Source: Acidobacteriota bacterium
GTDB taxonomy: Bacteria > Acidobacteriota > Terriglobia > Terriglobales > Acidobacteriaceae
DNA: 64,000 nucleotides
Assembly: GCA_003225215.1 (NCBI GenBank)
Contig: QIBC01000002.1
Location: forward strand, 6,589-70,588
Direction: 5' to 3'
Part shown: positions 2,349-19,208 of the stretch, piece after piece
How the letters are laid out: every line of letters begins with the position of its first letter
How positions within the stretch are numbered: position 1 is the stretch's first letter
Translations under genes and position numbers: made by a program
The notes under the pieces: generated by a model
The model's input: the letters and a program-made list of their open reading frames with translations, nothing else
What the model was told of the DNA's origin: nothing
Databases searched by the model: none

Positions 2349-2906
2349 TCAATTCGTTCGATCACGGTTCTCTGCTGTGTACAACTCATCGCTCTCGGCG
2401 TTGTACAACCGGTTCAGGCGCGCGCGGTAGTTCTCGAATGAAATCTGTGCTGCGAGTTCAATTAATTGTTCTTCTGAGAATTGATTGCGAAGCCTGGCAT
2501 AGAGATCGTCGGAGATGTTTGCCGGAGTACTGGTGAGTGCATCCGCGAGTTCAATTACCATGCGTTCGGTTTCGTTGAAGCCGCTGAGATCTTCGCCAAC
2601 CACCGCTGCCAACTTGGCATCGTTGAGTCCTGCCTTTCTGCCTACGGCAGAGTTGATGTCCACTCAAAACGGACAACCAATACGCGCCGCGGCTCGCACC
2701 TTGCCCAACTGCGTGTAGCGCAGCGAGACGCGCCGCTTTTTTCCTAATCCGGCCTCCATGCCGATGCTGCCCCACACGAGTCCAGGGACACGCATCTGGA
2801 TCTTTGCCGGAGTGAGATCCCGGCCGAACATCTTCCTCATTACGGTATAAAACCAGCGCAAATGCCAAGGCGCCTGATTCTTTTCAAGACCTGCAATTCG
2901 TGGCAT
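2349..2906 (-). CDS. carboxymuconolactone decarboxylase / AhpD-like family protein with in-frame TGA (probable selenocysteine, C-P-F-U)
   Basis: Two same-frame ORFs are separated only by TGA at 2664..2666. The joined product reads ...AAARIGCPF-U-VDINSAVGRKAGL..., so the TGA sits where this family has the second Cys of its CxxC. The likely start is ATG at 2904..2906 (MPRIAGLEKN). Confidence 0.7.
2618..2658 (-). promoter_or_regulatory. candidate bacterial SECIS hairpin downstream of the in-frame UGA
   Basis: The RNA reads CAUC-AAC-UCUGCC-GUAGGCAGAAA-GGCAGG-ACUCAAC-GAUG. It forms a 6-bp upper stem (one G:U) plus a 4-bp lower stem. The apical loop starts about 19 nt after the UGA and contains GG. 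Confidence 0.4.
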
Positions 2907-2985
2907 GAAAACTTTCCATCCGGACACAAAGATCACAACTGAAGAGAATACGGGATTTGTTCATATCGTTGGGCGTTGGTTTCCT

Positions 2986-3792
2986 TCAGGTTTCATCCAG
3001 CGATTGCCAACTCATGCCCCAGGAGTAGAGGCTGACGAAGATCAAGACGTCGAGAAATGGACCGAAGACAAAGTACAGCATGGGCATGAAGAGGATGGAA
3101 TTGTGGATTATCCAGACGTGAAGCATGTACTGGAATGGCAGAAAAATGACTAGGTAAGCCATGATTCCGACCGTCAGTCCGATTTTTTGCGGCAGTCGAA
3201 AGTCGAACAAGAAGTAGCTGAAGCCCAAAATCAGTGGCAACAGGGTGATGAAAATTGTTCCGAAATGGAGCATCCCGACGATGTAGCTGGGCAGATCATG
3301 CGGAAATTTTGCCGCGGCAACGGCAAAATATGCGAGCGCAGTACCCTGGATGATCACTAAAAAACGCAGCAAATAGACGAATGGAAGCTGCTCTTCGGGG
3401 ATTCCAAATGTGGTCCAGAGGATTAGTAGCGTAACTGCGGCCGTTGTCCACCATGTAACGGCGTCGGGCGGCCCAGCGGAAATGAGTACGGTTGGCACCG
3501 AAAACTGTATTGGACCCCAGTGTTGAGGCGCACGCGCGACGGATCCTTCGAGCCCCAACATGCGGTGCCAAAAGCGGAAAACATGAAACCAAAGCTCTCC
3601 AACGTAGCGCAGCGAGAGCAACCACGCGGCGCTAATCGACAAAACTGACCCTAATGTGATCCAAAATTCGCGGGCTGTAAACAGCAAACGCGCAAATGCG
3701 CGGTGCGGTGTGATGATTCCACCACGCCAACCTCGGCGCCGAATGTCGTAAATCTGCGCTTCGGTGAGCGCCGATGGAGTCGGTGCGCTCAT
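2986..3792 (-). CDS. polytopic inner-membrane protein, last gene of the EPS-like operon
   Basis: There are about 6-7 long hydrophobic segments (e.g. ITLLPLILGFSYFLF, MAYLVIFLPFQYMLHVWII). The ATG shares 1 nt with the TAA of the upstream barrel gene (TAATG at 3790-3794). Confidence 0.6.
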   Translation of the reverse strand: MSAPTPSALTEAQIYDIRRRGWRGGIITPHRAFARLLFTAREFWITLGSVLSISAAWLLSLRYVGELWFHVFRFWHRMLGLEGSVARAPQHWGPIQFSVPTVLISAGPPDAVTWWTTAAVTLLILWTTFGIPEEQLPFVYLLRFLVIIQGTALAYFAVAAAKFPHDLPSYIVGMLHFGTIFITLLPLILGFSYFLFDFRLPQKIGLTVGIMAYLVIFLPFQYMLHVWIIHNSILFMPMLYFVFGPFLDVLIFVSLYSWGMSWQSLDET

Positions 3793-4652
3793 TAGAAGTC
3801 TACGAAGAGGCCGACGGTGCCTCCGTTGCGGCGGAAGAACGGAGTGTTTTCGTGGTTAAAGATGATATTAATGCCCCAACCTGGGCCTATCCATTGCCGC
3901 CAAGTCGCCGAATATTGGCGAAAGGCAAAGTCCTGAAGTACGGTTTGTGGGCCCGTAATCAAGTATCCTTCGCGCCCCAATTCGGCACGGACGGTTATGT
4001 AGTGCTCTTTCTCGTGCCCTTGTGTGAGCGCTAAGTACTCTGAGAAATCCGATATGTTGCCCGGATTGGCGCGCACGAAATTAACACCACCCTGCGCCGT
4101 GACCGCCCACTTGGTGTAGTAAGCGAACGCCGGACCGAACCGGAAATCGTGATTTACCTGCTTGGATTTGTCATATCCGAACACTCCGGTGAGTACCAGT
4201 TGCTTATTGCTAAGTAATTTTCGACTTACACTGCTGTCAACGCGCAGCCTTGGCAGGAAAAATCCGCCTACGCTGGTACCGGCGTGGACGTCCGCAAACC
4301 AGTTTTCCGAGATGTCGCGCACAAGTCCGGCGCCGTAATACCAGCCAGTGTCGCCGTAGCGGTTGAGCCGCGACGCTTCGCCGCTGAGCGTATTTCTACC
4401 TCCGGAGGCCACGAGGCGCACGTAAGCATCGCGCCAGGGCACGTATGGGCGCGGATACATGTCGCTGTATCCACCGCCAAATTCAATGTAACCGGGTCCA
4501 TCGAGCGTGGATCGGATGCCTCCCAATCCGGGAACACTTGCACCCTGGGCCACAGGAGTACCTGTGTCCTGCCCGAAGAGTGCGAGAGAAAGAAGTAAGC
4601 ACAGGCTTATGGTCAGGACCTTGATCGTCTTTACAGTCATTCGAAGCCTCAA
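3792..4652 (-). CDS. outer-membrane beta-barrel protein (YaiO-like), putative polysaccharide export porin
   Basis: Signal peptide MTVKTIKVLTISLCLLLSLALFGQ, alternating Y/G/R-rich beta-strand pattern and a C-terminal ...VGLFVDF (terminal Phe). Size and pattern resemble E. coli YaiO as I recall it. Confidence 0.6.
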   Translation of the reverse strand: MRLRMTVKTIKVLTISLCLLLSLALFGQDTGTPVAQGASVPGLGGIRSTLDGPGYIEFGGGYSDMYPRPYVPWRDAYVRLVASGGRNTLSGEASRLNRYGDTGWYYGAGLVRDISENWFADVHAGTSVGGFFLPRLRVDSSVSRKLLSNKQLVLTGVFGYDKSKQVNHDFRFGPAFAYYTKWAVTAQGGVNFVRANPGNISDFSEYLALTQGHEKEHYITVRAELGREGYLITGPQTVLQDFAFRQYSATWRQWIGPGWGINIIFNHENTPFFRRNGGTVGLFVDF

Positions 4653-4656
4653 GTAC

Positions 4657-6564
4657 TCAGTTTCCAGCCTGAGGATTCATATTGCTCGTCTGCCGTGCCG
4701 TCAGCGAAACATTGAGATTCTTGCAGTCTCTTGCAGTCACGACCCAATAACCGTCCTGATCGTGGATATCTGCTGAGCCCTTAATCACCTGCGGTTGACT
4801 GTATGTCGAATCGGGAAAGATCCACGCTTCGTGCTCAAGTGTGCGCGGATGGCTCGCCGAGAGTACAGAATTGGCGCCCTGAACCTGAATCAACCACGTA
4901 ACCTCCTGCCGCTCGTTCAGGAAATTCGCGACCTGCGACATCGTGTACCAGCGAAATCGTCCTTCACCGGCAAGCTCACGATTGTGCTCAAACCATGTTT
5001 GCAGCGTCTGGATGTAGCGCGTAGCGCCCAAAGGATGGGAATAGACCAGGCGAATTACGTGTTCACGAGAGGTGAAGTCAGCAACATTAAGAAGCCAATT
5101 CTGCACTGCGGCCTCGGAGATCGAGCCCATGTGCATTTCCTCGAGGCTGGCTTCAGTTCCAAAATGGAGAATCGGGAACGCCCAGATCTTGTCTCCATCT
5201 CGCCCTACATCCCGATAGACACGGGTTGGACCCATGCCGGAATCCCCTGCAAAGTAATAGGCAACTATGTTGTGCTGCTCCAGCCAGCGCGTAACCCAAG
5301 CAGGTTGATTTCCAAGCGGCGCCGAATACTCACGAACCGCGTGGCCAGCGCTCTCTTCGATTGTTTTCTTGTTGAGTTCCAGATATTGCTGGAATGATTC
5401 CTGATTTGAATCGGAGAGGTTTCTTCCAAAGTAATTGTGGATCCAGCCACCGTGGCTCCCCACTTCATCGCCGTGTTCGACCAGGAAACGGACCCAGGAA
5501 CGCGACTCGGTATCGTTCTGCAGGTTGAGGCCCTTCCCATCGTGGAACTCATCCACATCCGGCCCTGCCGTGAAATCCGCAGAAAATGGTCCATTGTTGA
5601 AGATTCCTGCTTTGCGCAGCAGGGCCATCGGCTTGAGCGCCGAAGCTGCGTCGATGTGCCAGTTCATGACTACGCCGCCGACTCCGTCGGGGACATTCGC
5701 CAGATGCGGCATTTGCAGCATGTCCTCCGCAAAGTAATGAAGAAAGGAGTGCAGCAACATGCCGTCGGTGCGGGTTGTGAGATATCCAAGCGGAAGATTT
5801 ACGAAGAGTACTCGACCGGCGCCATGCTTGTTTTCGCCCGCGACCAGGCCGTCCGTCGATTGCAACAGGGTCTTGCCGTGGTATTCACCGGTCGTTTGGA
5901 AGCTTGGATATTCCAGTTCTCCATACAAGTATCCCACCAGAACCTGACGATCTCCCGCCGAGCGTTGTCCAAGGTGCATGGCTACGCGCTTTAACGGCGA
6001 GGATTGATGCCGTTCCTTAAGCGGAGCGTATGCTCCAGGAGGAATTCCGAGATCCTGCATAGCCTCCGGACTGCCCGACACATTTCCGGACACGATGCTA
6101 TCCGTCCCAAAACGGTCGTATAGCGCATACTCAACGCCCGCGAGATCTGACAATCGCGAGCTTCGCGTAGCATATCGATCATTCAGGTCCCAGGTGCAGG
6201 CGTCGTAAACGAGCATCAGCGCCCCGCCTTGTTCGACATAATTGTGCAGAGCGCCAACGAGGGCGTCGTTAGCCTGCCTATGAACCTGATCGGGAACGAT
6301 CAATCCAGCGGCCTTCAACTGGAACATTGGATCGAGCAAGGCGGAGTCGCGTACGACCTGCAGATGAAATCCCTCTTCGGCGGCTGCATCGAGCCACGCC
6401 TGAACTTGAATCTCTTTATCGCTTACCGAATCGGGAAGCAAGAGGAGGATGGTGTCGGCAGAAGCCGGCACGATCGCATTGTGGCGATACACGACCGCTG
6501 CTGTGCAGGTCAGCAGCACCATGGCAATTGCAATCGTGAGTTTCGGCTTGAACATGGCCGTCAT
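4657..6564 (-). CDS. membrane-anchored periplasmic protein, putative polysaccharide deacetylase-like / polymer-modifying enzyme
   Basis: The start was chosen at MTAMFKPKLTIAIAMVLL (ATG 6562..6564), which forms an ATGA overlap with the upstream stop. It has one N-terminal TM segment. The C-terminal half has WHIDAAS ... GSHGGWIHNYFG, reminiscent of NodB-type Asp and His metal motifs but with non-canonical spacing. Confidence 0.5.
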   Translation of the reverse strand: MTAMFKPKLTIAIAMVLLTCTAAVVYRHNAIVPASADTILLLLPDSVSDKEIQVQAWLDAAAEEGFHLQVVRDSALLDPMFQLKAAGLIVPDQVHRQANDALVGALHNYVEQGGALMLVYDACTWDLNDRYATRSSRLSDLAGVEYALYDRFGTDSIVSGNVSGSPEAMQDLGIPPGAYAPLKERHQSSPLKRVAMHLGQRSAGDRQVLVGYLYGELEYPSFQTTGEYHGKTLLQSTDGLVAGENKHGAGRVLFVNLPLGYLTTRTDGMLLHSFLHYFAEDMLQMPHLANVPDGVGGVVMNWHIDAASALKPMALLRKAGIFNNGPFSADFTAGPDVDEFHDGKGLNLQNDTESRSWVRFLVEHGDEVGSHGGWIHNYFGRNLSDSNQESFQQYLELNKKTIEESAGHAVREYSAPLGNQPAWVTRWLEQHNIVAYYFAGDSGMGPTRVYRDVGRDGDKIWAFPILHFGTEASLEEMHMGSISEAAVQNWLLNVADFTSREHVIRLVYSHPLGATRYIQTLQTWFEHNRELAGEGRFRWYTMSQVANFLNERQEVTWLIQVQGANSVLSASHPRTLEHEAWIFPDSTYSQPQVIKGSADIHDQDGYWVVTARDCKNLNVSLTARQTSNMNPQAGN

Positions 6565-7577
6565 GGCGCTGTGGTCACCTCGGAACAAGCACTGGGATTG
6601 GACTTCACTGCATCTTGCAAATGCGCCTGCACGGCCTGGAACGCAGATTCTTCGAGCACATTCCAATTCGTGCTGTACCGCAGCGGCTCAGAGCGCGAGA
6701 GCCAGCAAGCAGCGCTAGCGTCGTCACCGAACTTCAGCGCCGCCATTGCCACCAGCCCCCACGGATGGGGATCAACTTTCTTGTCCAGCCACTCGCTGGC
6801 GAAACGACTCCGCCACCGATCCCACGCTTGCCGAGTTTGCACATCAGACTCCATAGGGAGATCGGCCAGCCAGGGATACACCTGCGCCACAACATCCGGG
6901 TAGAACGCTGATCTACTCTTCTGGATAGATGGTCGAAACCACTCTGCGTGTTTGTTCCAGAACACCCGCTTGATACTTAAATTCAGCTTCTCTGCTTCTG
7001 CGTAGGTAGATCGAGCCCCGTCAGTCTCGCCAAAGCGCTCCTGCGCGCGCGCAATCGCAATCAGGGCGGAGTAAACCTCGATGTTGTCCATCAGCAGAGC
7101 AACATGGTTGCTGCCGGAGATGTGGTAGACCCCGAGCCGTCTGTTCCTCAGACCAGCCAAGCTAGCGCGAGCTTTGCGAACGCTCTGCTGCCACTCTGGC
7201 GGGAGTCCCGAATCGGGAGCGTTGGTGTAAAGCAGTTGCAGCCAGAGTGCCAGCATGGAATCGTCAGCATCGGCCGCGGCGCAGAGCTTCCAATCGGTGC
7301 CAGGCTTACGGCAATAGCGGCCGAAGCCGCCGTGTTTGTCTTGTCGCGGGAGCAACCATTGGATCCATTGCTGAAGCGGCTGGCGAACATCGAGTCCTGC
7401 TTCCTGGGCGAGGAGCAGCGCCTTGGTAGCAAAGTATGGCTCGATGTAGTCCCCATGATGCTGGAGCGAGATGGCGCCGTCGGGAAGCTGGTAACCGTTG
7501 GGATTAAACTCGCGTGCCGTGGTGGACGCGCAGAGAGCCAGCGAGCTGAGGAACAACAGAAGGATTGTGCCGCGCAT
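6561..7577 (-). CDS. secreted all-helical protein, possible (alpha/alpha)-toroid glycoside hydrolase/lyase of the EPS locus
   Basis: Signal peptide MRGTILLLFLSSLALCASTTA, followed by an Ala/Leu/Trp-rich helical repeat pattern. It sits where BcsZ/PslG-type hydrolases sit in synthase operons. The function is inferred from context only. Confidence 0.45.
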   Translation of the reverse strand: MRGTILLLFLSSLALCASTTAREFNPNGYQLPDGAISLQHHGDYIEPYFATKALLLAQEAGLDVRQPLQQWIQWLLPRQDKHGGFGRYCRKPGTDWKLCAAADADDSMLALWLQLLYTNAPDSGLPPEWQQSVRKARASLAGLRNRRLGVYHISGSNHVALLMDNIEVYSALIAIARAQERFGETDGARSTYAEAEKLNLSIKRVFWNKHAEWFRPSIQKSRSAFYPDVVAQVYPWLADLPMESDVQTRQAWDRWRSRFASEWLDKKVDPHPWGLVAMAALKFGDDASAACWLSRSEPLRYSTNWNVLEESAFQAVQAHLQDAVKSNPSACSEVTTAP

Positions 7578-8621
7578 TTAGTCTCCCACGCGGCCTTCTG
7601 TTTTTGCCCACGCAGTGCCATGAAGCACGGAGCCAGGAGCAAGATGAATGAGAGGAGCGCTGACTGTGGTTGGAGTTCCCGGCAGCCCAACCTGCACTCC
7701 GGAATCGATGATCACTTCGCGCTCTGCAATGATTGGACCCTTTACGAAACATCCGCTGGAAATGTGAATCCGCTTTGTGCTCACCAAACTCCCATGGACC
7801 TCGGCTCGTTCTTTGAGGCTTATGTCACCATTGGCTTTCATGCTGCCGAAGATGCAGGCGCCCTGCTCTAGATCAATGTTTCTGGTCGCCACGGCGTCTC
7901 CCCGGTGCTCTTCATCAGCAGGGAAGTGCATTGCTCCATGAACGCGTGTGCGGCCAATGCCGCTCTGCGCCAATCTTGCATATGGTGCATATTCAGTACG
8001 CAAGTTGAGAGCTGTTCCTTCGGTTGAACTGTAGATCACGGGGGCATAGATGCGTTCGAAGCTGCATCCAGGGGAGAGAGTGAGCAACTTGGCGGACGAG
8101 GCGCGCCCGTACAACCTACAGTTCCTGCCAGCCGACAGGCTGGATTCTGCATGTACCCAACGGAGAACCTGCGTGTCGTTTCCTAAGGCAATTTCTTCTT
8201 CGCTTAAGAGAGAGCGAAAGATGCTCTGTTGTCCGCATCGCACGTTTCCTCTACAGTAAAAATCCGCGATTGATTGGAATCCGGCTGGAAGTTCAACTGA
8301 TCCTGCGCATGCCACCAGCGCGACGGGATGGTGGGAACCGGCCCAGGCTCCGGATTGGCCGACGACAAAGGCGCTTCCATGGGAGAGATCGATGAGCTGG
8401 TTATCGCCAAACTTTGCACAGTCGTCGAGCATCCGGTGAAGCGAGATGCAACGTGTTCTTAGTGATGCTGCGAAACTCGAAATGTTGCCATCGTCTTTGC
8501 GGGTGACAAGTGGCCCGGCATCGCGCTTGGAGATCAGTTCGCGAAGTGCCGGAGCGAGCGGCACGATGAGCAATGCGCCGGTCGATGTCGCCAGTGCCAA
8601 CGGTCCGAGAACTGAAGTCAT
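7578..8621 (-). CDS. membrane-anchored protein with beta-helix / bactofilin-like repeats
   Basis: The start was chosen at MTSVLGPLALATSTGALLIVPL (ATG 8619..8621), an ATGA overlap with the GT2 stop. The C-terminal part has repeated short strands (ISLKERAEVHGSLVSTKRIHISSGCFVKGPIIAEREVIIDSGVQV). Confidence 0.55.
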   Translation of the reverse strand: MTSVLGPLALATSTGALLIVPLAPALRELISKRDAGPLVTRKDDGNISSFAASLRTRCISLHRMLDDCAKFGDNQLIDLSHGSAFVVGQSGAWAGSHHPVALVACAGSVELPAGFQSIADFYCRGNVRCGQQSIFRSLLSEEEIALGNDTQVLRWVHAESSLSAGRNCRLYGRASSAKLLTLSPGCSFERIYAPVIYSSTEGTALNLRTEYAPYARLAQSGIGRTRVHGAMHFPADEEHRGDAVATRNIDLEQGACIFGSMKANGDISLKERAEVHGSLVSTKRIHISSGCFVKGPIIAEREVIIDSGVQVGLPGTPTTVSAPLIHLAPGSVLHGTAWAKTEGRVGD

Positions 8622-9931
8622 GCAGACTTCTCCAGCACAACCGGCGCCACACGCGAACGCTCCGTCTTGTGCCAAACCATTTCCTGCCCTCGAATCCACG
8701 AGGTGAACTGCTGCCATGCCGCACGAGAAACGCTGATCGCGCTCACGGTGAAGCCAAGGAATGTGAGCGGAAGCAGTTGAATGCGTGCTCTCGATCCATC
8801 CAGCCGCGCAGCCGCTGCAATCTCGAAGAAGGCAGCGAAGTTTCCCAGAGTGGTAAATGCCGCCAGACCGAGAACTGCAAGGCCTCCTCCCACGGGGGCG
8901 CCGAGGTAAAAGAGCACCATTGCCAGCAGCCAGCCAAGCAGCAATACTGGAGCCATCATGTAGACGCCGAGGAGCAACAGGCCGTCGAATCGCTCCCACC
9001 AACTGACGTTGCGACTGCGCAGCAATAGAGCGGAGTAGCCAACCATCGCCTGGTTGTGTCCTTTGGCCCAACGCATGATCTGCCGTACGCGAACCGGCCA
9101 TCGTTCCGGAACTTCCTCGTAACATTCGGCGCGATTCTCATAAACCGTCTTCCACCCGGCGAGCAGCATTCGATAAGTGAGGTCCGTGTCTTCGGCGAGT
9201 GTGTTTTCGTTCCAGCCTCCAATTTCGTCGAGGGCCGACTTGCGAATGCCTGCCACGGTCCCGCCGTACTGCGGAACGAAATGCAGGTTCATGCGCGCCT
9301 GCTGATCTACTTGATATCCGCCAGAGCGTTCCAAATCGAGAATTCGCGTAAGCAATTTCTTCCCGACGTTCAGAGGAACAACCCGTCCCATTACGCTTCC
9401 TACTTCGGGATCGAAGAAGGGAGCGACTAACTGCCTGATTAGCGCCTTGCCGGGAACATAGTCAGCGTCGAACACCAGCATGATCTCTGTGTTGACGTAT
9501 GCCATGGCATCTTTAAGGGCGGCAGCCTTGCCAGCCCTACCGCCAGTCCGGTGAAAAGGTGTAATGCGTCCGGGATAATGGACCACGAAGCTGTCGATAA
9601 TCTCTCGAGTGCGATCCACTGACCGGTCGTTTACAGGTACGATGGCGAGCTTCTCCGCCGGATAATCAACTTCCAGGAGAGCAGTAAGAATGTCTCCAAC
9701 GACGGCTTCCTCGTTGTGAGCCGCGATTAATACGGTAACAGGGGGCCATTCCGCGGTATCGACATCAACATACGGATGGCGCTGTTGACCGATAATGCGG
9801 TTGACCGTAAAGCAGTAGTGCCGGATCGTGTAAATACAGATCAGTGCAACCACTGCTGTGAATAATCCCAGTAACATCTTCCCTCCCGAGTGGCTCCGTG
9901 AATAACCTGTTAGAAGCCACTGGTCGGGCAA
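8618..9931 (-). CDS. processive family-2 glycosyltransferase (PgaC/IcaA/cellulose-synthase-like polysaccharide synthase)
   Basis: LIAAHNEE, DxD in VFDADYVP, LAEDTDLT and QxxRW as QIMRWAKGH. It has an N-terminal TM plus C-terminal TM bundle. At 437 aa it is the size I recall for PgaC. Confidence 0.9.
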   Translation of the reverse strand: MPDQWLLTGYSRSHSGGKMLLGLFTAVVALICIYTIRHYCFTVNRIIGQQRHPYVDVDTAEWPPVTVLIAAHNEEAVVGDILTALLEVDYPAEKLAIVPVNDRSVDRTREIIDSFVVHYPGRITPFHRTGGRAGKAAALKDAMAYVNTEIMLVFDADYVPGKALIRQLVAPFFDPEVGSVMGRVVPLNVGKKLLTRILDLERSGGYQVDQQARMNLHFVPQYGGTVAGIRKSALDEIGGWNENTLAEDTDLTYRMLLAGWKTVYENRAECYEEVPERWPVRVRQIMRWAKGHNQAMVGYSALLLRSRNVSWWERFDGLLLLGVYMMAPVLLLGWLLAMVLFYLGAPVGGGLAVLGLAAFTTLGNFAAFFEIAAAARLDGSRARIQLLPLTFLGFTVSAISVSRAAWQQFTSWIRGQEMVWHKTERSRVAPVVLEKSA

Positions 9932-10018
9932 GCCTGATGAAAGCGCATGCTGAGGTCCTCAACCCAATGAGTTCGTCGTTGTTAGACTTCTGCTGCTTCA
10001 ATGTTGGATGCGGTACAA

Positions 10019-11215
10019 CTAAGAGACTGTGGCGATTTGCTCCCTTATTCCACTTTCAAACTGTTCTGTTGGCGCCAGCACTGGTATGGCTCCGTTAAGC
10101 CAACGTGAAAGACTCTGAACGATTCGTGCAGAGGCTCGTGCATCTCCATATGGATTTTGTCCTTCGGACATCGTGCGATACACAACGCTGCTTCCCAGAA
10201 TGTCGCTGGCTTCTTTGACAATGGCTTCTCGCGATGTGCCGACGAGGCGGGCTAATCCCATCAGCGACGCTTCGGGTCGTTCCGTGACTTTCCTGAGCAC
10301 GAGCACCGGTTTTCCGAATGTCGGAGCTTCTTCCTGCACGCCTCCCGAGTCGGTCAGCACCAGGTAGCAGCGGCGAAGCAACGATAAAAATCCGAAATAA
10401 TCGACGGGCTCGATTAGATGAATGCGATCCAGATTCCCCAGGCGAGCCAGCACCGTGCCGCGGACGTTCGGATTCAAGTGCACCGGATAAACGGCGCGTA
10501 CATCGGGGAATGCGACCACGAGATCGCGAATCGCATCGCAGATGTTTTCCAGTTCCGTCCCCCACGATTCGCGGCGGTGAGAGGTGATAAGCAGCAATCG
10601 AGAGCTGTCCTCAGGTACGCCGGCCGGCAAAGCCTGATCTGCCATCTTCATGTCCAACAGCATCTTCACCGCATCGACCACGGTATTCCCAGTGGTTACG
10701 ATGGCTGACCGAGCAACTCCCTCGGACAGGAGATTGTCACGTGCGATTGAAGTGGGAGCGAAGTGAAGAGAGGTCACGACGCCGGCAAGTCGGCGGTTCG
10801 ATTCTTCCGGAAATGGATTCGTCATGTCGCGGCTGCGCAGGCCAGCTTCTACATGGGCCACCGGGATCTTGCGATGGAACGCCGCCAAGGCTGCCGCCAT
10901 AGCTGTTGTTGTGTCTCCCTGGACTACGAGGCAGTCGAGTGGATTCGCTGCGAGCACGGAATCCATCGCTTGCAGCACGCGACACGTAAGGCGATTCAGG
11001 GTCTGATTTGGCTGCATCAGGTCGAGATCGACGTCGGGCGAGATGCGAAACACCTGCAGGACCTGATCGAGCATCGAGCGATGTTGTGCGGTCGAAATGA
11101 GATACGGTTTGAACTCCGTGGAATGCTGCTTCAACTCTGCAATAACCGGCGCGAGCTTGATCGCCTCAGGTCTGGTGCCAAACACCACTCCCACTTGTAA
11201 CCGCTTGTTAACCAT
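10019..11215 (-). CDS. wecB: UDP-N-acetylglucosamine 2-epimerase (non-hydrolysing)
   Basis: VVFGTRPEAIKLAPV, HVEAGLRS, TDSGGVQEEAP and the full-length 398 aa architecture. Confidence 0.93.
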   Translation of the reverse strand: MVNKRLQVGVVFGTRPEAIKLAPVIAELKQHSTEFKPYLISTAQHRSMLDQVLQVFRISPDVDLDLMQPNQTLNRLTCRVLQAMDSVLAANPLDCLVVQGDTTTAMAAALAAFHRKIPVAHVEAGLRSRDMTNPFPEESNRRLAGVVTSLHFAPTSIARDNLLSEGVARSAIVTTGNTVVDAVKMLLDMKMADQALPAGVPEDSSRLLLITSHRRESWGTELENICDAIRDLVVAFPDVRAVYPVHLNPNVRGTVLARLGNLDRIHLIEPVDYFGFLSLLRRCYLVLTDSGGVQEEAPTFGKPVLVLRKVTERPEASLMGLARLVGTSREAIVKEASDILGSSVVYRTMSEGQNPYGDARASARIVQSLSRWLNGAIPVLAPTEQFESGIREQIATVS

Positions 11216-11527
11216 TAGGTAAATAGGCCTCGATTCAAGTAGAGTCTGCAGCTGCCGCTCTGGTTGCCCTTCAAATCAGGGCTTCGACATCACTTGAATT
11301 TTGTTCATATGAATTCACAGGAAAGTCGGCGCCGCGAGCAACACGGCTCTTAACGAATTCATCACTACCACGGTGAGCTGCACAAGCAGAGACTCTGCTT
11401 CCGCGCAACAGAACAAGAACGCGCAATAGAACAAGAAGAGAAGAGGAAGAACAGAAACGAATCGACACGCCGGAATCGTTTCCGCCGAGTGTGTGACCGA
11501 GGATGCCGGCAAAAAAGTTAAGGAGTT

Positions 11528-12661
11528 ATGTTGAGGCGCACAAGCACACAACCTCTTCCAGAAGCAGCGCCGGATCGTTTCCGGCGTCGAGCTACGCTTC
11601 ATGAAATTCCGCAGCCCAGATCGTGGAAGAGTTCTTCTGCGGTGCCTGCGTTTGCAGAGGTAAGCGCACCCAGAAAATGGAACCGTTGGGGCGCGAGCGG
11701 ACTTATTCATCTTGCTGCGCTTCTTTTCGTCGTCCGGATCGCGGCATGGCTGCCCAGGGAAACGATGAAGCTCGTCACCCCGACTCATGAGAGTGTGACG
11801 CTGATCGCGCCCACCCTGGAGAAGCCGGTCATTGTGAAGCCGGTGCCGCCGCCGCCTCCCAAGGTCCTCGCGCAGTTGCGTGAAGAACCGAAGCTGCCTG
11901 CTCCAGAGCCGAAAGAAGTGCCCAAAATGGAAACGCCGGTGGTGAAGCCCATGCCTGCTCCTGAACCTCCAAAGGTCGCGGAGAATACCCCTCCACCGGT
12001 TCTGCCCAAACCTCCGGTGCCGAAAAAGATAGTCACTGAAGGTTTGTTTGATTCCGGCAGTTCAGCCAAGCCCACAATCAAAGCCCCTGTGCGCGAAGTG
12101 CAAACTGGGGGATTTGGTGATCCGAATGGTGTTCCGGGAAAATCCGATAAGGACAGGAAGTTAACCATCGCTTCCGTCGGAAGTTTCGACTTGCCTACCG
12201 GACCTGGAAATGGCAATGGTGCGGGCGGTGCTCACGGGAAACCAGGCGTAGTTGCCAGTGCCGGCTTCGGAGATGGGATGGCGGGAGCCGGTTCAGGCGA
12301 TCGGAATCCGCGGGGCGCGGTGAGCACGGGCGGATTTGGCGATGCCAGCAATGCTCAGCCATCGGCAAGGCGCACCACTCGGCAGCCAGATACAACGCCA
12401 GTAGAAATTCTTTCCAAGCCTCGTCCGCTTTACACCGCTGAAGCGCGGCAACTGCGCATAGAAGGAGAGGTCCTTCTCGATGTGATGTTCGGCGCCTCAG
12501 GGGACATTCGCGTCCAGCGCGTGATTCGAGGACTCGGACATGGCTTGGATGAAGCAGCGCAGCGCGCCGCAACACAAATTCGTTTCAATCCCGCAAAACG
12601 CGAGGGCCACCCCTCTGACTCTGTGGCGGTTGTTCACATCGTCTTTGCGTTAGCCGAATAA
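11528..12661 (+). CDS. TonB family energy transducer
   Basis: N-terminal TM LIHLAALLFVVRIAAWL, a Pro/Lys/Glu-rich spacer (PVPPPPPKV...PEPKEVPK...) and a C-terminal TonB domain (YTAEARQLRIEGEVLLDVMF...RFNPAKREG). Confidence 0.85.
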   Translation: MLRRTSTQPLPEAAPDRFRRRATLHEIPQPRSWKSSSAVPAFAEVSAPRKWNRWGASGLIHLAALLFVVRIAAWLPRETMKLVTPTHESVTLIAPTLEKPVIVKPVPPPPPKVLAQLREEPKLPAPEPKEVPKMETPVVKPMPAPEPPKVAENTPPPVLPKPPVPKKIVTEGLFDSGSSAKPTIKAPVREVQTGGFGDPNGVPGKSDKDRKLTIASVGSFDLPTGPGNGNGAGGAHGKPGVVASAGFGDGMAGAGSGDRNPRGAVSTGGFGDASNAQPSARRTTRQPDTTPVEILSKPRPLYTAEARQLRIEGEVLLDVMFGASGDIRVQRVIRGLGHGLDEAAQRAATQIRFNPAKREGHPSDSVAVVHIVFALAE

Positions 12662-12682
12662 GTTCGTTCTTGGAGGAATTAC

Positions 12683-14362
12683 ATGTCGGTCTCACGGAAA
12701 ATCTGGATTCTCGGCGCAGTAGTGCTGGCGGCCTCGTTTGCCATCGCAGCGGATACTCCCGCGCAGCAGCCGAGCCCGGCGAAATCACAGCAGCAAGCCG
12801 TTATTAACAGCATCTTCTACCAGGAAGCCAAGCTCGTCGAGAACATGCACAAGTACACGCCGCTGGTGGAGACCTATATCCAGAACACCAAGCCCGACGA
12901 CGAACTAGGCGAGGTGCCGACGAGCGACAAGTATTTCCTCGGCCGTCTGGTGCTCGATAAACGTGGCATTAGCGACTTGAGTTACGACAGGAAAAAAGTG
13001 GGAATGTTCTCTCGGGTATTGGACCGGCTCGATAGCTTCTACAAGATGACCTACTTGCCGGAAGGTTTCATGCAACTTGTATTCCTGAGCCACGGCTTCA
13101 ATGTCCAGAACTACGACTTGAAATATCTCCGGCAGGAATTTCTGGGCGACGTGCGCACGCTCGTCTTCGACGTTGTTCCACACAAAAAGATAAAAGGAAC
13201 GCACTTCGTAGGCCGTATCTGGGTTGAAGATCAGCAGCACAACATCGTCCGCATGAACGGCACGTATGAGCCGCAGCGCAGCGGCAACTTCTATTTCCAT
13301 TTTGATAGCTGGCGCATGAATATGCAGCCGGGATTGTGGCTGCCCGCGCTGGTTTACACCGAAGACTCCGACGTGAAATATGACCTTGTCCGCAAGATCA
13401 GCATGAAAGGGCAGACGCGCCTGTGGGGATACGACTTGAAGCATTCCGGCCGGCAGACGGAATTTACCGATCTGCAGGTGGAAGAGAACTCTCAGGATGT
13501 GACGGATAAGAGTGGCTCCAGCGCGAACGAAATGAGTCCGATCGAGAGCCGCCATAAATGGCAGCGCGAAGCCGAAGACAACGTTCTCGATCGTATGGAG
13601 CGGGCTGGCGTGTTAGCGCCCGCAGGCGAGGTCACGAAGGTCCTCGAAACCGTCGTGAATAACTTCGAAGTCACCAACAACTTGAACATTCAGCCCGAGG
13701 TTCGATGCCGAGTTCTGCTCACCACTCCGCTCGAGTCGTTCACCGTAGGAAACACCATCGTTCTCAGCCGCGGATTGCTCGACGTACTGCCGGACGAAGC
13801 CTCCCTGGCAATGATGCTTTCACACGAGTTGGCTCACATTGCGCTCGGCCATTCCGTGAATACGAAGTACGCCTTCAGCGATCGCATGATCTTCCCTGAT
13901 GAGCAGGTGCTGCAGAAGATCGGTATGAGGCGCAATGACCCCGACGAAGATGCTGCGGACAAGAAAGCCGTGGAATTGCTGCGAAACTCACCATACAAGG
14001 ACAAACTCGGCAGTGCCGGACTCTTCCTCAGGGCGCTACAGTCGCGATCGCATGAGCTGACATGGCTTATCAGTGCCAATTTCGGAAACCGCATGGCTAA
14101 GGGCAGTGACATTTTGAGAATGGAATCTCTGATTCGATCAGCTCCCGAACTCAAGACTAGCGACGTTCGACAGCTGGCTGCGCTTCCACTGGGCAGCCGA
14201 ATCAAACTCGATCCCTGGGACGATCACGTGAACCTCAAGCGAAGTAAGCCCGAGGCGGTGTTGTCTGCTCGCGACAAATTGCCTTTCGAGGTCACACCAA
14301 TGATTCCCAATCTCGTGCGTGCCGGCGAGGCAAGAGGGAACGAAGTGGCGGAAAAGCGCTGA
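12683..14362 (+). CDS. secreted M48-family zinc metallopeptidase
   Basis: Signal peptide, an HExxH motif in MMLSHELAHIALGH, and a GGAGG RBS 7 nt upstream of the ATG. Confidence 0.8.
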   Translation: MSVSRKIWILGAVVLAASFAIAADTPAQQPSPAKSQQQAVINSIFYQEAKLVENMHKYTPLVETYIQNTKPDDELGEVPTSDKYFLGRLVLDKRGISDLSYDRKKVGMFSRVLDRLDSFYKMTYLPEGFMQLVFLSHGFNVQNYDLKYLRQEFLGDVRTLVFDVVPHKKIKGTHFVGRIWVEDQQHNIVRMNGTYEPQRSGNFYFHFDSWRMNMQPGLWLPALVYTEDSDVKYDLVRKISMKGQTRLWGYDLKHSGRQTEFTDLQVEENSQDVTDKSGSSANEMSPIESRHKWQREAEDNVLDRMERAGVLAPAGEVTKVLETVVNNFEVTNNLNIQPEVRCRVLLTTPLESFTVGNTIVLSRGLLDVLPDEASLAMMLSHELAHIALGHSVNTKYAFSDRMIFPDEQVLQKIGMRRNDPDEDAADKKAVELLRNSPYKDKLGSAGLFLRALQSRSHELTWLISANFGNRMAKGSDILRMESLIRSAPELKTSDVRQLAALPLGSRIKLDPWDDHVNLKRSKPEAVLSARDKLPFEVTPMIPNLVRAGEARGNEVAEKR

Positions 14363-14636
14363 ATGTTTTCAGTCAATCACGGAGCGCCGCGCGCTCTCAC
14401 CCGGCGGACGAAGATGAGTTGGAGTACGACGGATCAAGTATTCACAATCTTCATAGCTCGTCGGGCGGGGACGCCTGGGCGCTCCGCTTCGTGGGATGAC
14501 CAACACTTGATGAAACTAACATCCAACAACTCCGGATTCCTCATGCAGCAGCGTCAGAGCTGCACAACTCCGGGCAGTTTTGTCTTCATCACAACCTAAC
14601 GACGTTTCGATCCGCCACTTCGAGCAAAGGTGATCA

Positions 14637-16067
14637 ATGCTACGGGCTCGTCTAAAAACATTTTGGCATTTTGCCATTCTTGCACTCGCTTGCTGCTATC
14701 TGGCGGGTTGCTTAGCACTAGTCGGGTCGAAGGGCTCAGGAGACAATAGCGGCGGCGGTACTAGCGGCGGCACGGGTGGCGGAGGTGTTGGAGGCGCTAC
14801 TCCAGTGGGCAGCACTCCCGGCCCAAACAACGGCGCTACTGGAGACGTGAGCACGATCAATCACATTATCTTTATGTCCCAGGAAAATCGCTCGTTCGAT
14901 ACATACTTTGGGCACATGAACGAGTATCGGGCGTCGCTGGGGCTCCCGCAGGACGTAGATGGCATGCCGGCGAACGCTTCCAATCCTGCCTTCGATGGAA
15001 GCACAATCAATGCCTTCCACCTGCAGACCATGTGCGTGGAGAACACCAGCGCCGACTGGGCTACGAGCCACATCAACTTCAACCGATTTAACGAGAGTTC
15101 AGATACGCCGACGATGGACGGCTTCGTCGTTCAGGCGGGAGCGGCAGCCTTGGGGCAGGGAAGCAAGGATACGGTTGGCGTTCGCGCAATGGGCTATTAC
15201 ACTGCAGCCGACCTTCCTTACTACTACTTCATGGCTTCGCAGTTCGCCACGTCCGATCGCTGGTTTGCTCCGGCGCCGACTGAGACGGAAGCTAATCGTT
15301 TGTATCTAGTCGCGGCCACGTCAGTAGGGCACGTTCACCGGCCGACGGCCCAAGTGAGCGCAAAGACCATTTTCGACCTGCTCGATACGAAGAACATTTC
15401 TTACAAGATCTACTACATGGATCCGCACCTCGACACGGAGTTAGACGACTTCTCGGGGTTCATGGCCACGCATCAAAACAAGTTCGCGCCCTTGTCGCAG
15501 TACTACACCGACCTTCAGAACGGAACGTTACCGCAAGTTTCCTATATTGAACCTGGATTTACGGATGGCAATGATGAGCATCCGGGACTAGGCAACGACA
15601 TTCAGACTGGAGCCGCCGAGACGGCGAAGATTGTCAACGCACTGATGGCTAGCAGTGCATGGAAAGATTCGGCGTTCATTCTTGTCTATGACGAAGGCGG
15701 AGGGTTCTACGATCACGTTCCCCCACCCACGACCAATGTGCCGAATCCAGATGGCATTCCGCCACAGGACCTGATTACTACGAATCCGCCAGATCCGAAG
15801 GGCGACTTTACCCGTTATGGATTCCGCGTTCCCATAATCGTGGTTTCGCCGTTCACGAAGAAGCATTACGTCTCGCATACCGTCACGGACAGCACAGCCG
15901 TGCTGAAGATGATTGAAGCCCGCTTTGGTCTGCCCAGCTTGAACAAGCGCGATGCTGCCGGCATGGACATGAGCGAGTTCTTCGATTTTCAGGGGAAGCC
16001 ATGGGCCACGCCTCCGACGCCGCCGGCACAGCCAACAAATGGGCCTTGCTACGACGGTTTGCCGTGA
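14637..16067 (+). CDS. phosphoesterase family protein (phospholipase C / acid phosphatase AcpA-like), lipoprotein
   Basis: Lipobox LAGC, a Gly/Ser linker, and IIFMSQENRSFDTYFGH typical of the phosphoesterase family. Confidence 0.82.
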   Translation: MLRARLKTFWHFAILALACCYLAGCLALVGSKGSGDNSGGGTSGGTGGGGVGGATPVGSTPGPNNGATGDVSTINHIIFMSQENRSFDTYFGHMNEYRASLGLPQDVDGMPANASNPAFDGSTINAFHLQTMCVENTSADWATSHINFNRFNESSDTPTMDGFVVQAGAAALGQGSKDTVGVRAMGYYTAADLPYYYFMASQFATSDRWFAPAPTETEANRLYLVAATSVGHVHRPTAQVSAKTIFDLLDTKNISYKIYYMDPHLDTELDDFSGFMATHQNKFAPLSQYYTDLQNGTLPQVSYIEPGFTDGNDEHPGLGNDIQTGAAETAKIVNALMASSAWKDSAFILVYDEGGGFYDHVPPPTTNVPNPDGIPPQDLITTNPPDPKGDFTRYGFRVPIIVVSPFTKKHYVSHTVTDSTAVLKMIEARFGLPSLNKRDAAGMDMSEFFDFQGKPWATPPTPPAQPTNGPCYDGLP

Positions 16068-17441: not shown

Positions 17442-19208
17442 GTGCCTTCACAGATCCAACTGCGCTCAAGTTCGGAAACGAAAGGATTCCTGCGCAAGTA
17501 CATCTTCAGCACGAATCACAAAACAGTCGGCATTCAATACTTCTTTCTTTCACTCTTTGCCGTTGTAGTGGGCATGGCGCTCTCCTGGCTGATGCGGATC
17601 CATGTTGCCTGGAGCGGGGTGCGAATCTTCGGGCTTGAACATCTCTCTGCTGCCGGAGCTCCAGGTGGAGTGATTACGCCTGAGTACTACCTGTCACTCA
17701 TGACACTTCACGGCACGATCATGATTTTTTTCGTGCTCACGCTCGCTCCCCAGAACGCATTTGGGAATTACTTCCTGCCTCTGCAAATCGGAGCGGAGGA
17801 GACCGCGTTTCCAATCGTGAACATGTTGTCGTTCTGGACTACGTTGGTTGCGCTCCTTGTTTTGCTCGCGACACTATTTGTTGGAGATGGACCGCCTATT
17901 TCCGGGTGGACGGCATATCCGCCCATGAGCGCCGTCGGAAAGGATGCTGGCCCGGGATTGGGCACAGGACAGAATCTCTGGATCATTTCCATTGGGATCT
18001 TCTGCATTGCTTCAGTCCTGAGTTCAATCAATTTCATCGCTACGTTCATGGATATGCGCTGCAAGGGCATGGCGCTCATGCGGCTGCCGCTTACGTGCTG
18101 GGCATGGTTCATTACGGCGATTATGAGTCTGTTGAGTTTTGCCGTCCTGCTCGCGGCTGTCTTGTTGCTCCTGCTGGATCGCACGGCGGGCACGAGTTTC
18201 TTCGTGCCGGCTAATCTGCTGGTCAGTGGCAAGATTGAGCCGCACTCCGGGGGATCGCCTCTGCTGTGGCAGCACCTGTTCTGGTTCTTCGGCCATCCCG
18301 AGGTGTACATCACGATTCTTCCTGGGTTCGGGATCGTCTCTCACGTTTTGTCTTGCTTTTCGCGCAAGCCAATCCTGGGCTACAAATTAGTGCTGGGATG
18401 CATGCTGGCAATCGGCTTTCTTAGCTTTATCGTGTGGGGCCACCACATGTTCGTGAGCGGGATGAGTCCCTTTTCAGGATTCCTATTCTCGATTCCGACG
18501 ATCGTCATCTCTTTGCCCGCAACTATTACGACTCTTCTCTGGTTAGGCACGCTTTGGGGCGGCAGGCTGCAGTTCAGTACTTCGATGATGTTCGGTCTGG
18601 GATTTGTCTCAACCTTTGTCGCCGGCGGGCTTGGCGGGATTCTGCTGGCGCATCCTGCTGTCGATTCGTATCTGCATGCCACATACTTCGTGGTTGGTCA
18701 CCTGCACATGGTCATGGGAGTCTCGGCGATTTTCGCAATCTTCGCTGCGATTTACTTTTGGTATCCCAAGATGTTCGGAAAGATGCTGAATGAGCGGCTT
18801 GGCTTGATTCACTTCGGGCTTACCTTCATCGGTGTCTATTGCATCTTCATGCCCATGCATTTGCTCGGGTTCGCAGGAAATCCGCGCCGTTACGCAATTC
18901 TCAGCGACGACTTTCTGATTCGGCTGATTCCCCTGCATCAGTTCATTACTGTCGCGGCTCTGATCACGGGAGCGGTCCAGTTTTTGTTTCTGTTTAACCT
19001 GTTCTGGAGTCTCTACCGGGGAGAACCTGCTCCTGCGAACCCCTGGAGTGCGACGTCCTTAGAGTGGGAAACGAGTTCTCCTCCGCCGATTGGAAACTTC
19101 AGGCGGCAGCCCATCGTCAATCATGGGGCTTATGAATACGGGGAAACAAACATCGAGCGCGATTTCGTTATGCAATCAGATCCGGAAAGTGTGAGGATGA
19201 AGGCGTGA
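17442..19208 (+). CDS. ctaD: cytochrome c oxidase subunit I
   Basis: FSTNHKTVGIQY, WFFGHPEVYI, HHMF and 12 TM helices, giving the heme-copper oxidase signature. Confidence 0.96.
   Translation: MPSQIQLRSSSETKGFLRKYIFSTNHKTVGIQYFFLSLFAVVVGMALSWLMRIHVAWSGVRIFGLEHLSAAGAPGGVITPEYYLSLMTLHGTIMIFFVLTLAPQNAFGNYFLPLQIGAEETAFPIVNMLSFWTTLVALLVLLATLFVGDGPPISGWTAYPPMSAVGKDAGPGLGTGQNLWIISIGIFCIASVLSSINFIATFMDMRCKGMALMRLPLTCWAWFITAIMSLLSFAVLLAAVLLLLLDRTAGTSFFVPANLLVSGKIEPHSGGSPLLWQHLFWFFGHPEVYITILPGFGIVSHVLSCFSRKPILGYKLVLGCMLAIGFLSFIVWGHHMFVSGMSPFSGFLFSIPTIVISLPATITTLLWLGTLWGGRLQFSTSMMFGLGFVSTFVAGGLGGILLAHPAVDSYLHATYFVVGHLHMVMGVSAIFAIFAAIYFWYPKMFGKMLNERLGLIHFGLTFIGVYCIFMPMHLLGFAGNPRRYAILSDDFLIRLIPLHQFITVAALITGAVQFLFLFNLFWSLYRGEPAPANPWSATSLEWETSSPPPIGNFRRQPIVNHGAYEYGETNIERDFVMQSDPESVRMKA

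Follow-up and report, generated by a model that had tools for sequence, protein, structure and literature searches.

A probable synthase-dependent exopolysaccharide system of previously undescribed composition in Acidobacteriota

PgaABCD, the machinery of poly-N-acetylglucosamine (PNAG), combines a processive family 2 glycosyltransferase (GT2), a periplasmic metal-type deacetylase and an outer-membrane barrel in one operon logic. In the Pel system, PelA is a four-domain enzyme that founded carbohydrate esterase family CE21, in which a histidine of motif MT1 substitutes for the missing arginine of motif MT3; the motifs of the family are H-x-D-x-D (MT1) and H-x3-H (MT2), with no arginine in MT3 and a histidine in MT5 (PMC12022489). 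The PelA of Bacillus cereus has been drawn as a transmembrane (TM) anchor, a GH42-middle-like (oligomerisation-like) domain and a CE4 deacetylase (PMC7890745). In the Nfr system (NfrB-NfrA-YbcH plus WecB), which makes the receptor glycan of phage N4, the Escherichia coli processive GT2 NfrB uses WecB-derived uridine diphosphate (UDP)-N-acetylmannosamine (ManNAc), and wecB is genomically linked to the Nfr synthase in species without another ManNAc pathway (PMC8669469). The Pss polymer of Listeria monocytogenes has a beta-1,4-ManNAc backbone, needs the glycosyltransferase PssC and responds in its biosynthesis to the level of cyclic di-GMP (c-di-GMP) (PMC13492145); the polymer is reported to be processed by PssZ, a GH126 glycosidase of the (alpha/alpha)6-barrel family. 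Here, we describe a block of genes at positions 2986-11215 of a 64,000-nucleotide (nt) window, the whole stretch of DNA that we analyzed, from contig QIBC01000002.1 of the acidobacterial assembly GCA_003225215.1 (all positions are those of the window). This locus likely encodes a synthase-dependent exopolysaccharide system of previously undescribed composition.

The Acidobacteriota, including the Terriglobales and related groups, rank among the most abundant bacteria of soil, and their matrix polymers are believed to influence how soil aggregates and how cells survive desiccation. To our knowledge, the genetics of acidobacterial exopolysaccharides are largely unknown, and we found no published description of this cluster in the literature on YaiO, DUF2194, bactofilins and exopolysaccharides, or acidobacterial synthase-dependent systems.

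Could the locus simply belong to one of the described systems? The list of open reading frames (ORFs) of the window and the sequence itself confirmed seven minus-strand ORFs, with the order and coordinates given by an earlier reading of the sequence (the original prediction). In the direction of transcription, these are wecB (g1), a GT2 synthase gene (g2), and the genes for a predicted TM-tethered beta-solenoid (g3), a glycosidase-like secreted protein (g4), a PelA-like modifying enzyme (g5), a YaiO-family barrel (g6) and a polytopic inner-membrane protein (g7). The gene set, the family and fold assignments, the conservation of catalytic-type residues, the synteny and the overlapping junctions were computed directly. 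They fit the logic of synthase, modifying enzyme, hydrolase and porin that the original prediction had seen, with the qualification that the hydrolase-like g4 is an accessory. The locus would thus work like the PNAG, Pel, cellulose and alginate systems, yet it is a member of none of them.

The arrangement is conserved far beyond the window. A scan of a species-representative genome collection with the g5 family found at least 570 stretches with a gene for a relative; among 1.84 billion representatives, the family falls into 411 clusters at 50% identity. The best 80 of these at least 570 stretches are nearly all labelled as metagenome-assembled genomes (MAGs) of Acidobacteriota (Terriglobales and Acidiferrales), one being labelled Dormiibacterota. 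When the seven window proteins were searched by tblastn against 83 loci, with the same order and strand required, g5 was found in all 83, g3 in 80, g2 and g6 in 79 each, and wecB and g7 in 77 each, the misses among these core genes falling mostly at contig ends. The expected synteny in related genomes was therefore observed across many Acidobacteriota loci (77–83 of 83 for the core genes). The gene g4, found in 33 of the 83, is limited to the clade closest to the window and was undetected in the other 50 loci; consequently, the description as a seven-gene locus holds for the clade of the window but not for the family at large.

The junctions tell a similar story. As read from the sequence and as originally described, g2 and g3 overlap by ATGA, the TAA of g3 directly abuts the ATG of g4 (0 nt), g4 and g5 overlap by ATGA, and g6 and g7 share one nucleotide in TAATG. 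The 4-nt gap reported between g5 and g6 did not stand as well, because it exists only with a TTG start of g6 at 4652. An alternative start, the ATG at 4640, is preceded by a GAGG at a distance of 6 nt, and the length that it gives, 282 amino acids (aa), is the one called in close relatives, so the start at 4640 is preferred and a gap of 16 nt is, from the sequence, more likely. A GGAGG also lies ahead of the g2 ATG at 9877. Across the family, ATGA is the modal junction type: the overlap occurs at g2/g3 in 56 of 78 loci and at g4/g5 in 25 of 31, and, in loci that lack g4 and have both genes complete, g3 overlaps g5 by ATGA in 46 of 48. With synteny in 77–83 of 83 loci and ATGA overlaps as family traits, the gene arrangement is far beyond chance. 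Promoter and terminator scans were uninformative, with counts at or below the shuffle expectation.

By its family matches, g1 (10019-11215) is a bona fide non-hydrolysing UDP-N-acetylglucosamine (GlcNAc) 2-epimerase, WecB. It scored 460.6 bits against TIGR00236 (cut-off 210.15), with residues 6-370 aligned to positions 1-363 of the 366-position profile, and matched PF02350 at E 5e-113. The next gene product, g2 (8618-9877; 419 aa), with one TM segment at the N-terminus and about four at the C-terminus, carries the motifs predicted for a PgaC-like processive enzyme (the D of NDRS, DAD, EDTD and QIMRW); across about 80 homologues, the corresponding D, DxD, ED and QxxRW show little or no variation. 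Its best NCBIfam match was PgaC_IcaA (TIGR03937; 131.1 bits), followed by CelA and NodC, and its matches among sequences in the PDB were BcsA structures (E 1e-12 to 1e-14) and PcManGT. On sequence grounds, g2 is therefore a processive-type membrane GT2 synthase; its best matches (PgaC/IcaA, CelA, NodC and BcsA) are processive synthases and not the non-processive lipid or lipopolysaccharide-core enzymes with which it might have grouped. These comparisons also place g2 closest to PgaC/IcaA among the characterised families, but not as a PgaC orthologue.

Is the product then simply PNAG? In that case, g2 would be a divergent PgaC making pure beta-1,6-GlcNAc, g5 would stand in for PgaB and g6 for PgaA, and wecB would serve another pathway. 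PgaC/IcaA is indeed the best-scoring characterised GT2 family (28% identity to E. coli PgaC, E 4e-30), the H-x4-H spacing of g5 is that of H184/H189 in E. coli PgaB, and wecB lies 141 nt off without overlapping g2. However, the 131 bits of g2 compare with an equivalog cut-off of 422 bits, and the locus contains neither a PgaA-type porin with tetratricopeptide repeats (TPRs) nor a PgaD, no relatives of PgaA or PgaD being found among the seven products. Moreover, PgaB combines CE4 with GH153, whereas g5 has the PelA layout, and the locus has the extra conserved g3 and g7 and the linked wecB. The adjacency of wecB persists in 77 of 83 loci over GT2 identities of ~55–95% and recurs at 29% g5 identity, which would be difficult to account for if wecB had no functional connection to the cluster. 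We consider a PNAG system unlikely.

Another alternative is that the product is no secreted polymer of high molecular weight but a short oligosaccharide, or a glycan that is periplasmic or linked to a lipid, comparable to the chito-oligomers of NodC/NodB or the hopanoid glucosamine of HpnI/HpnK, and that g6 is unrelated to it. NodC (E 4e-19), HpnB (E 4e-13) and HpnI (E 3e-10) are among the weaker matches of g2, the pairing of a GT2 with a deacetylase fits those pathways too, and two distant variants of the locus (L092 and L094, described below) have no YaiO gene called nearby. The much stronger matches of g2 to PgaC/IcaA and cellulose synthase nevertheless favor a polymer, as do its QxxRW motif and four-helix C-terminal membrane domain. 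Furthermore, g5 is predicted to face the periplasm, unlike the cytoplasmic NodB or HpnK, and the barrel gene is present in 79 of 83 loci, overlapping or abutting its neighbours in most. This alternative is thus highly improbable, and an exopolysaccharide remains the preferred reading.

What would the sugar be? The original prediction took the neighbouring wecB as a sign of a ManNAc-containing rather than a pure GlcNAc polymer, and this suggestion was strengthened by the adjacency of wecB to the GT2 gene in 77 of 83 loci, by the same adjacency in the distant locus L092 and by the precedent of Nfr, in which a processive GT2 is likewise paired with WecB. The likeness to Nfr has limits. NfrB is matched by g2 only at a non-significant BLAST E-value of 1.6, and by the family hidden Markov model (HMM) at 1e-5, and the locus has no MshEN c-di-GMP domain, no NfrA-type TPR-porin and no relative of YbcH. 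In Listeria Pss, PssC and PssZ parallel g2 and g4 by description, and this Gram-positive system differs in having no outer-membrane component. Since the wecB linkage persists and NfrB and Listeria Pss provide precedents, a ManNAc component of the polymer is somewhat better than an even bet.

The modifying enzyme g5 (4657-6564; 635 aa) had been described as a TM-anchored protein with a NodB-like histidine/aspartate pattern and a possible DUF2194 identity. The anchor and the site stood, but the protein appears to be neither a plain NodB nor a DUF2194 member. DUF2194 (PF09960) was not matched by g5 at E ≤ 0.1 or by any of 48 family members at E ≤ 0.01, and this identity was rejected. As a single sequence, g5 matched Polysacc_deac_1 and the GH42 middle domain only weakly (both E 2e-3); its 18.4 bits against PF01522 (Polysacc_deac_1) are below the gathering cut-off of 23.1. 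Among 48 diverse family members, 33 matched PF01522 at E ≤ 0.01 (best 7.6e-9) and 10 matched GH42M. A search of solved structures with the full-length profile found nothing. The AlphaFold2 (AF2) model, built with 33 homologues (predicted local distance difference test score, pLDDT, 82.5; predicted template modelling score, pTM, 0.85), consists of a TM helix (7-29), an alpha/beta domain (~38-285), a deacetylase-type barrel (~297-553) and a beta-sandwich (556-623). At E 7e-11 (probability 1.00; 731 aligned columns), 9cgy, the structure of Pseudomonas thermotolerans PelA, was the top Foldseek match of this model, followed by CE4 deacetylases and GH42 middle domains. Judged by the model, g5 would be a PelA without the GH166 hydrolase domain: it holds PelA domains 2-4 (alpha/beta, deacetylase, beta-rich), and its layout equals that drawn for B. 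cereus PelA.

The conserved residues resemble the PelA motifs in part. The putative active-site residues H303, D305, H371, H376 and H510 are kept in 43–46 of the 48 family members, down to 25% identity (H510 in 46). MT1 is H303-x-D305 and MT2 is H371-x4-H376, and the domain profile aligned SHGGWIH onto the CE4 His-His motif and gave Y-S-A-P, with no arginine, as MT3. As in PelA, a histidine stands two residues before the MT1 aspartate, and the MT3 arginine is absent. On the other hand, g5 differs from PelA in having no GH166 domain, in missing the second MT1 aspartate and in its H-x4-H instead of H-x3-H in MT2. It differs from Gram-positive PelA (TM helix, DUF2194 and CE4) in that no member of the g5 family matches DUF2194. 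The surrounding system differs as well, the synthase being a GT2 and not PelF (GT4) or PelD/E/G, with no PelB or other pel genes in the locus. Lysines and arginines average 2.9 before the TM helix of g5 and 0.6 after it, which places the body outside the cytoplasm, in the periplasm. Because the second MT1 aspartate is absent, deacetylase activity is likely but not assured; g5 is best regarded as a predicted deacetylase of plausible activity, and the product of the locus is probably partly de-N-acetylated.

The barrel g6 (3792-4640; 282 aa, or 286 aa from the TTG at 4652) scored 124.5 bits against TIGR04390 (cut-off 32) and 80.5 bits against PF19413 (cut-off 23.9). It has a signal-peptide-like N-terminus and ends in FVDF, and the 120 homologues listed carry the YaiO domain alone, the full-length ones having about 274–326 aa. 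In most loci, its gene overlaps or abuts its neighbours. By these family matches, g6 is a stand-alone YaiO-family outer-membrane beta-barrel, in agreement with the small YaiO-like barrel with a terminal phenylalanine foreseen earlier, although 282 aa is likelier than the 286 aa then given. Neither g5, with its polysaccharide-deacetylase fold, nor g6 thus fell into an unrelated family. We propose g6 as the putative export channel.

The E. coli yaiS-yaiP-yaiX-yaiO region also sets a YaiO barrel beside a GT2 (YaiP), an acyltransferase-like protein (YaiX) and a deacetylase (YaiS). However, E. coli YaiO was undetected by the g6 family profile (hhalign probability 5%), YaiP is only 22% identical to g2 (E 2e-7), YaiX was undetected by the g3 HMM, and YaiS, a small LmbE-type protein, is not PelA-like. 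The g6 family HMM detected no NfrA or PgaA barrel and the g7 HMM no PgaD. Orthology with E. coli YaiO, YaiX and PgaD was rejected because the family HMMs of g6, g3 and g7 fail to detect them. The comparison of neighbourhoods with yaiO-yaiP-yaiS and pgaABCD, which the original prediction had called for, therefore yielded similar parts lists but no orthology, and E. coli yaiO, yaiP and yaiS are analogues only.

The secreted helical protein of the original prediction, g4 (6561-7577; 338 aa), has an N-terminal signal-like hydrophobic segment. Its score against MGH1-like_GH was 19.6 bits (cut-off 27), and its profile matches in the PDB were weak; among 23 homologues, 16 matched MGH1-like_GH (best E 1e-6), 4 Trehalase and 2 a rhamnosidase six-hairpin family. 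The sequence comparisons suggest a secreted (alpha/alpha)6 protein that resembles the six-hairpin glycosidases, a group with MGH1-like GH/GH63, GH37 and GH78 catalytic domains. Its place among the core genes was not upheld, detection in 33 of 83 loci making it an accessory.

Could the two remaining membrane proteins, g3 and g7, serve as partners of the synthase? The AF2 model of g3 (7578-8621; 347 aa; pLDDT 88.7) starts with a TM segment (5-30); a flexible linker leads to a long helix (47-71), and a beta-solenoid of ~270 residues with bactofilin-like repeats then runs without interruption (74-345). This model had no neighbour among solved structures in the PDB below E 0.1. Against Bactofilin (PF04519), g3 itself scored 18.6 bits, under the gathering cut-off of 27.9; of 43 homologues, 41 matched Bactofilin at E ≤ 0.1 (best 1.7e-9), in the C-terminal third. 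A profile search of solved structures gave weak matches to LpxD and GlmU (E ~4e-4) and to bactofilin. Bactofilins form a cytoplasmic, polymer-forming family with a core of about 100 residues. With its TM anchor and its 270-residue solenoid in place of a soluble ~100-residue core, g3 appears, from model and sequence, to lie outside the bactofilin class proper. Its homologues have essentially no lysine or arginine before the TM segment and 3.4–4.6 in the next 20 residues, which, by the positive-inside rule, would place the solenoid body in the cytoplasm. A juxtamembrane motif, P-A-L-x-E-L-x-x-K-x-D-A-x-P-L, is conserved. The TM-anchored beta-helix protein of the original prediction was thus recovered as a TM segment plus solenoid, with the refinement that the body is probably cytoplasmic.

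A beta-helix protein in such a locus may also be a periplasmic enzyme that modifies the polymer, that is, an AlgG-like epimerase, a lyase or an acyltransferase. AlgG, the beta-helix protein of the alginate system, acts on the polymer in the periplasm and so provides a precedent, and both the weak LpxD and GlmU matches (hexapeptide acyltransferases; E ~4e-4) and the label 'predicted acyltransferase' that some g3 homologues carry in JGI data would fit. The charge pattern around the TM segment, however, points to a body in the cytoplasm; of the 43 homologues, 41 matched Bactofilin and none matched a Pfam right-handed beta-helix or CASH family at E ≤ 0.1; and no solved enzyme was a neighbour of the model below E 0.1. 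A periplasmic enzyme is therefore rather unlikely, and we prefer a tethered solenoid facing the cytoplasm.

The polytopic protein g7 (2986-3792; 268 aa) was read correctly as such, with about five hydrophobic segments, and is now seen to be a member of the conserved core (77 of 83 loci). Its strongly basic N-terminus carries a near-invariant R-G-x-R-G-G-x-I-x-x-H-R-A. Searches of Pfam, NCBIfam and the PDB gave no match to it, and no relatives of g7 were detectable outside these loci. The strict co-occurrence of g3 and g7 with the synthase argues for membership of its complex, and for no more than that.

How much of this set survives in distant relatives? At 26–29% g5 identity, the loci retain the GT2, g3 and g5 in a reshuffled core, and g3 was found in every distant variant examined. 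The orders are a TPR protein followed by g7-GT2-g3-g5-g4-YaiO in L090; g5 beside g3-g7-YaiO in L091, with a collagen-like extension on the barrel; wecB-g7-GT2-g3-g5 in L092; and GT2-g3-g5 in L094. In L090 and L092, g7 has moved upstream of the GT2. The GT2, g3 and g5 form the invariant module, joined by g7 wherever the contig extends far enough; wecB and the barrel are its frequent companions, and g4 is optional. One distant g5 cluster includes a genome of candidate division WOR-3.

Some of these variants carry further features. In L090 (4247-14791), a 610-aa TPR-rich protein is encoded directly upstream of g7, an extra terminal gene encodes a 339-aa protein of unknown family, and there is no adjacent wecB; in this system family, a TPR scaffold may thus be dispensable or provided in trans. 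In the YaiO barrel of L091 (5310-6515), a collagen-like triple-helix repeat (Pfam Collagen, E 9e-10) replaces the short N-terminus. In L095 (1678-4281), the g5-family protein (P0149) is an 867-aa form with about 250 extra C-terminal residues, and the GT2 gene is divergent from it and apparently split into ORFs of 349 aa and 135 aa.

As to the parts that the original prediction found missing, its three absences were borne out in the seven products as far as the searches reached: there was no Pfam match to TPR or Sel1, no relative of PgaD (hhalign probability of the g7 family against PgaD, 0.2%), and no PilZ, I-site, MshEN or PgaCD-type c-di-GMP receptor by Pfam or NCBIfam. A c-di-GMP receptor of another type may still reside in g2, g3 or g7. 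A cis-regulatory RNA was rejected: no Rfam family, c-di-GMP riboswitches included, reached the gathering score in the whole window, and within 2700-11700 none scored at E ≤ 1. GGDEF/EAL genes neighbour the cluster in only two or three of 86 loci, with none in the window; they are not enriched, and a link to c-di-GMP through the neighbourhood was rejected. The sole hint of c-di-GMP involvement is a divergent PAS-PAS-GGDEF-EAL gene in L092 (1679-4222), which lies ~1.5 kb from wecB on its upstream side, beyond one unannotated gene, and has no recurrence in the Acidobacteriota loci. Several other loci also have two-component genes close to the cluster, but these are not mutually orthologous; a conserved two-component regulator was rejected, as the PAS hybrid kinase beside one locus (L055) recurs in only 4. 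In the window itself, a histidine-kinase C-terminus (HATPase_c) and a stand-alone receiver protein are encoded at 3-902, 2 kb past g7 on the opposite strand.

The flanks delimit the system. Downstream, they vary between loci, and colinearity with the closest relative, L001, ends at the g7 stop codon. Upstream, genes of the TonB_C, M48-peptidase-like and phosphoesterase families at 11528-16067 diverge from wecB and are syntenic only in the seven-gene clade (17–25 of 83 loci), and are thus probably inherited neighbours outside the system; we rejected them as parts of it. The variable downstream flanks and the clade-limited synteny upstream define the functional block as wecB to g7. A Sel1 protein encoded downstream in L001 was likewise rejected for want of a homologue in the window. 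Conservation of the 260 nt that precede wecB is confined to the closest relatives, with 76% in L001, 53–54% in two further loci (L010 and L011) and about 30–40% elsewhere. The divergent wecB/TonB_C intergenic region contains a perfect 17-bp palindrome, AAGCAGAG-T-CTCTGCTT, at 11384-11400, identical in L001, and two copies of an 18-bp direct repeat at 11402-11437 that are absent from L001; the region 11384-11437 is a possible operator. Farther away, a strong trough in AT skew at 17.5-19 kb coincides with a 588-aa ORF (17442-19208) bearing the haem-copper oxidase subunit I signature WFFGHPEVYI and reflects the compositional bias that is usual for so hydrophobic a protein. In L001, a COX2 gene lies beside the equivalent region.

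Regarding substrate, polymer identity, enzyme activities, the topology of g3, complex formation and export through g6, we infer the following route. WecB would convert UDP-GlcNAc to UDP-ManNAc in the cytoplasm, and g2 would polymerise an N-acetylhexosamine chain, of ManNAc alone or ManNAc with GlcNAc, and thread it through its own membrane channel. The tethered solenoid g3, facing the cytoplasm, and the polytopic g7, with its arginine-rich cytoplasmic N-terminus, would be obligate inner-membrane partners of the synthase, in place of PgaD, BcsB or Alg44, with scaffolding, activation or signal input as candidate roles. In the periplasm, the membrane-anchored g5 would de-N-acetylate part of the chain, g4 would trim or clear it in the clade that carries g4, and the polymer would leave through the TPR-less YaiO-family barrel g6.

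Several points weigh against this interpretation. Every functional claim is computational and none experimental, and all homologues found come from MAGs or metagenomes and are unannotated or 'hypothetical'. The score of g2 (131.1 bits) is far below the 422.3-bit equivalog cut-off of PgaC/IcaA, so its substrate is not readable from homology, and wecB is spaced 141 nt from the g2 ATG (9877) with no overlap. The MT1 of g5 has one aspartate (H-x-D), in contrast to the H-x-D-x-D of PelA or the D-D of CE4, and the matches of g5 to solved CE4 enzymes are marginal (E 0.02–0.4). The positive-inside rule is the one ground for placing the g3 body in the cytoplasm, and we know of no function for YaiO itself. 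The fullest reading is tentative, and we hold it as possible but somewhat short of an even chance. It sees here a distinct, unrecognised class of secretion system, widespread in soil Acidobacteriota and with distant relatives in other uncultured phyla, in which the partners of a PgaC-like synthase are two new obligate co-subunits (a bactofilin-like solenoid, tethered to the membrane and cytoplasmic, and a polytopic protein whose N-terminus is rich in arginine) that replace those of the PgaD, BcsB or Alg44 type, possibly with regulatory input, and in which a cationic, partly de-N-acetylated ManNAc polymer is exported by a TPR-less YaiO barrel.

If the route proposed above is right, the locus would represent a new architecture beside the alginate, cellulose, PNAG, Pel and Nfr synthase-dependent systems, and a PelA-type modifying enzyme would be able to serve a GT2 synthase. 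The YaiO family would gain a testable function, which on the fullest reading would be its first and would by analogy extend to E. coli yaiSPXO, and there would be two new kinds of synthase partner, one of them tying a bactofilin-like solenoid to polysaccharide synthesis. With at least 570 stretches and 411 clusters at 50% identity for the g5 family, the cluster is widespread and not a curiosity. The genes behind acidobacterial slime, a long-open practical question, would then become directly testable.

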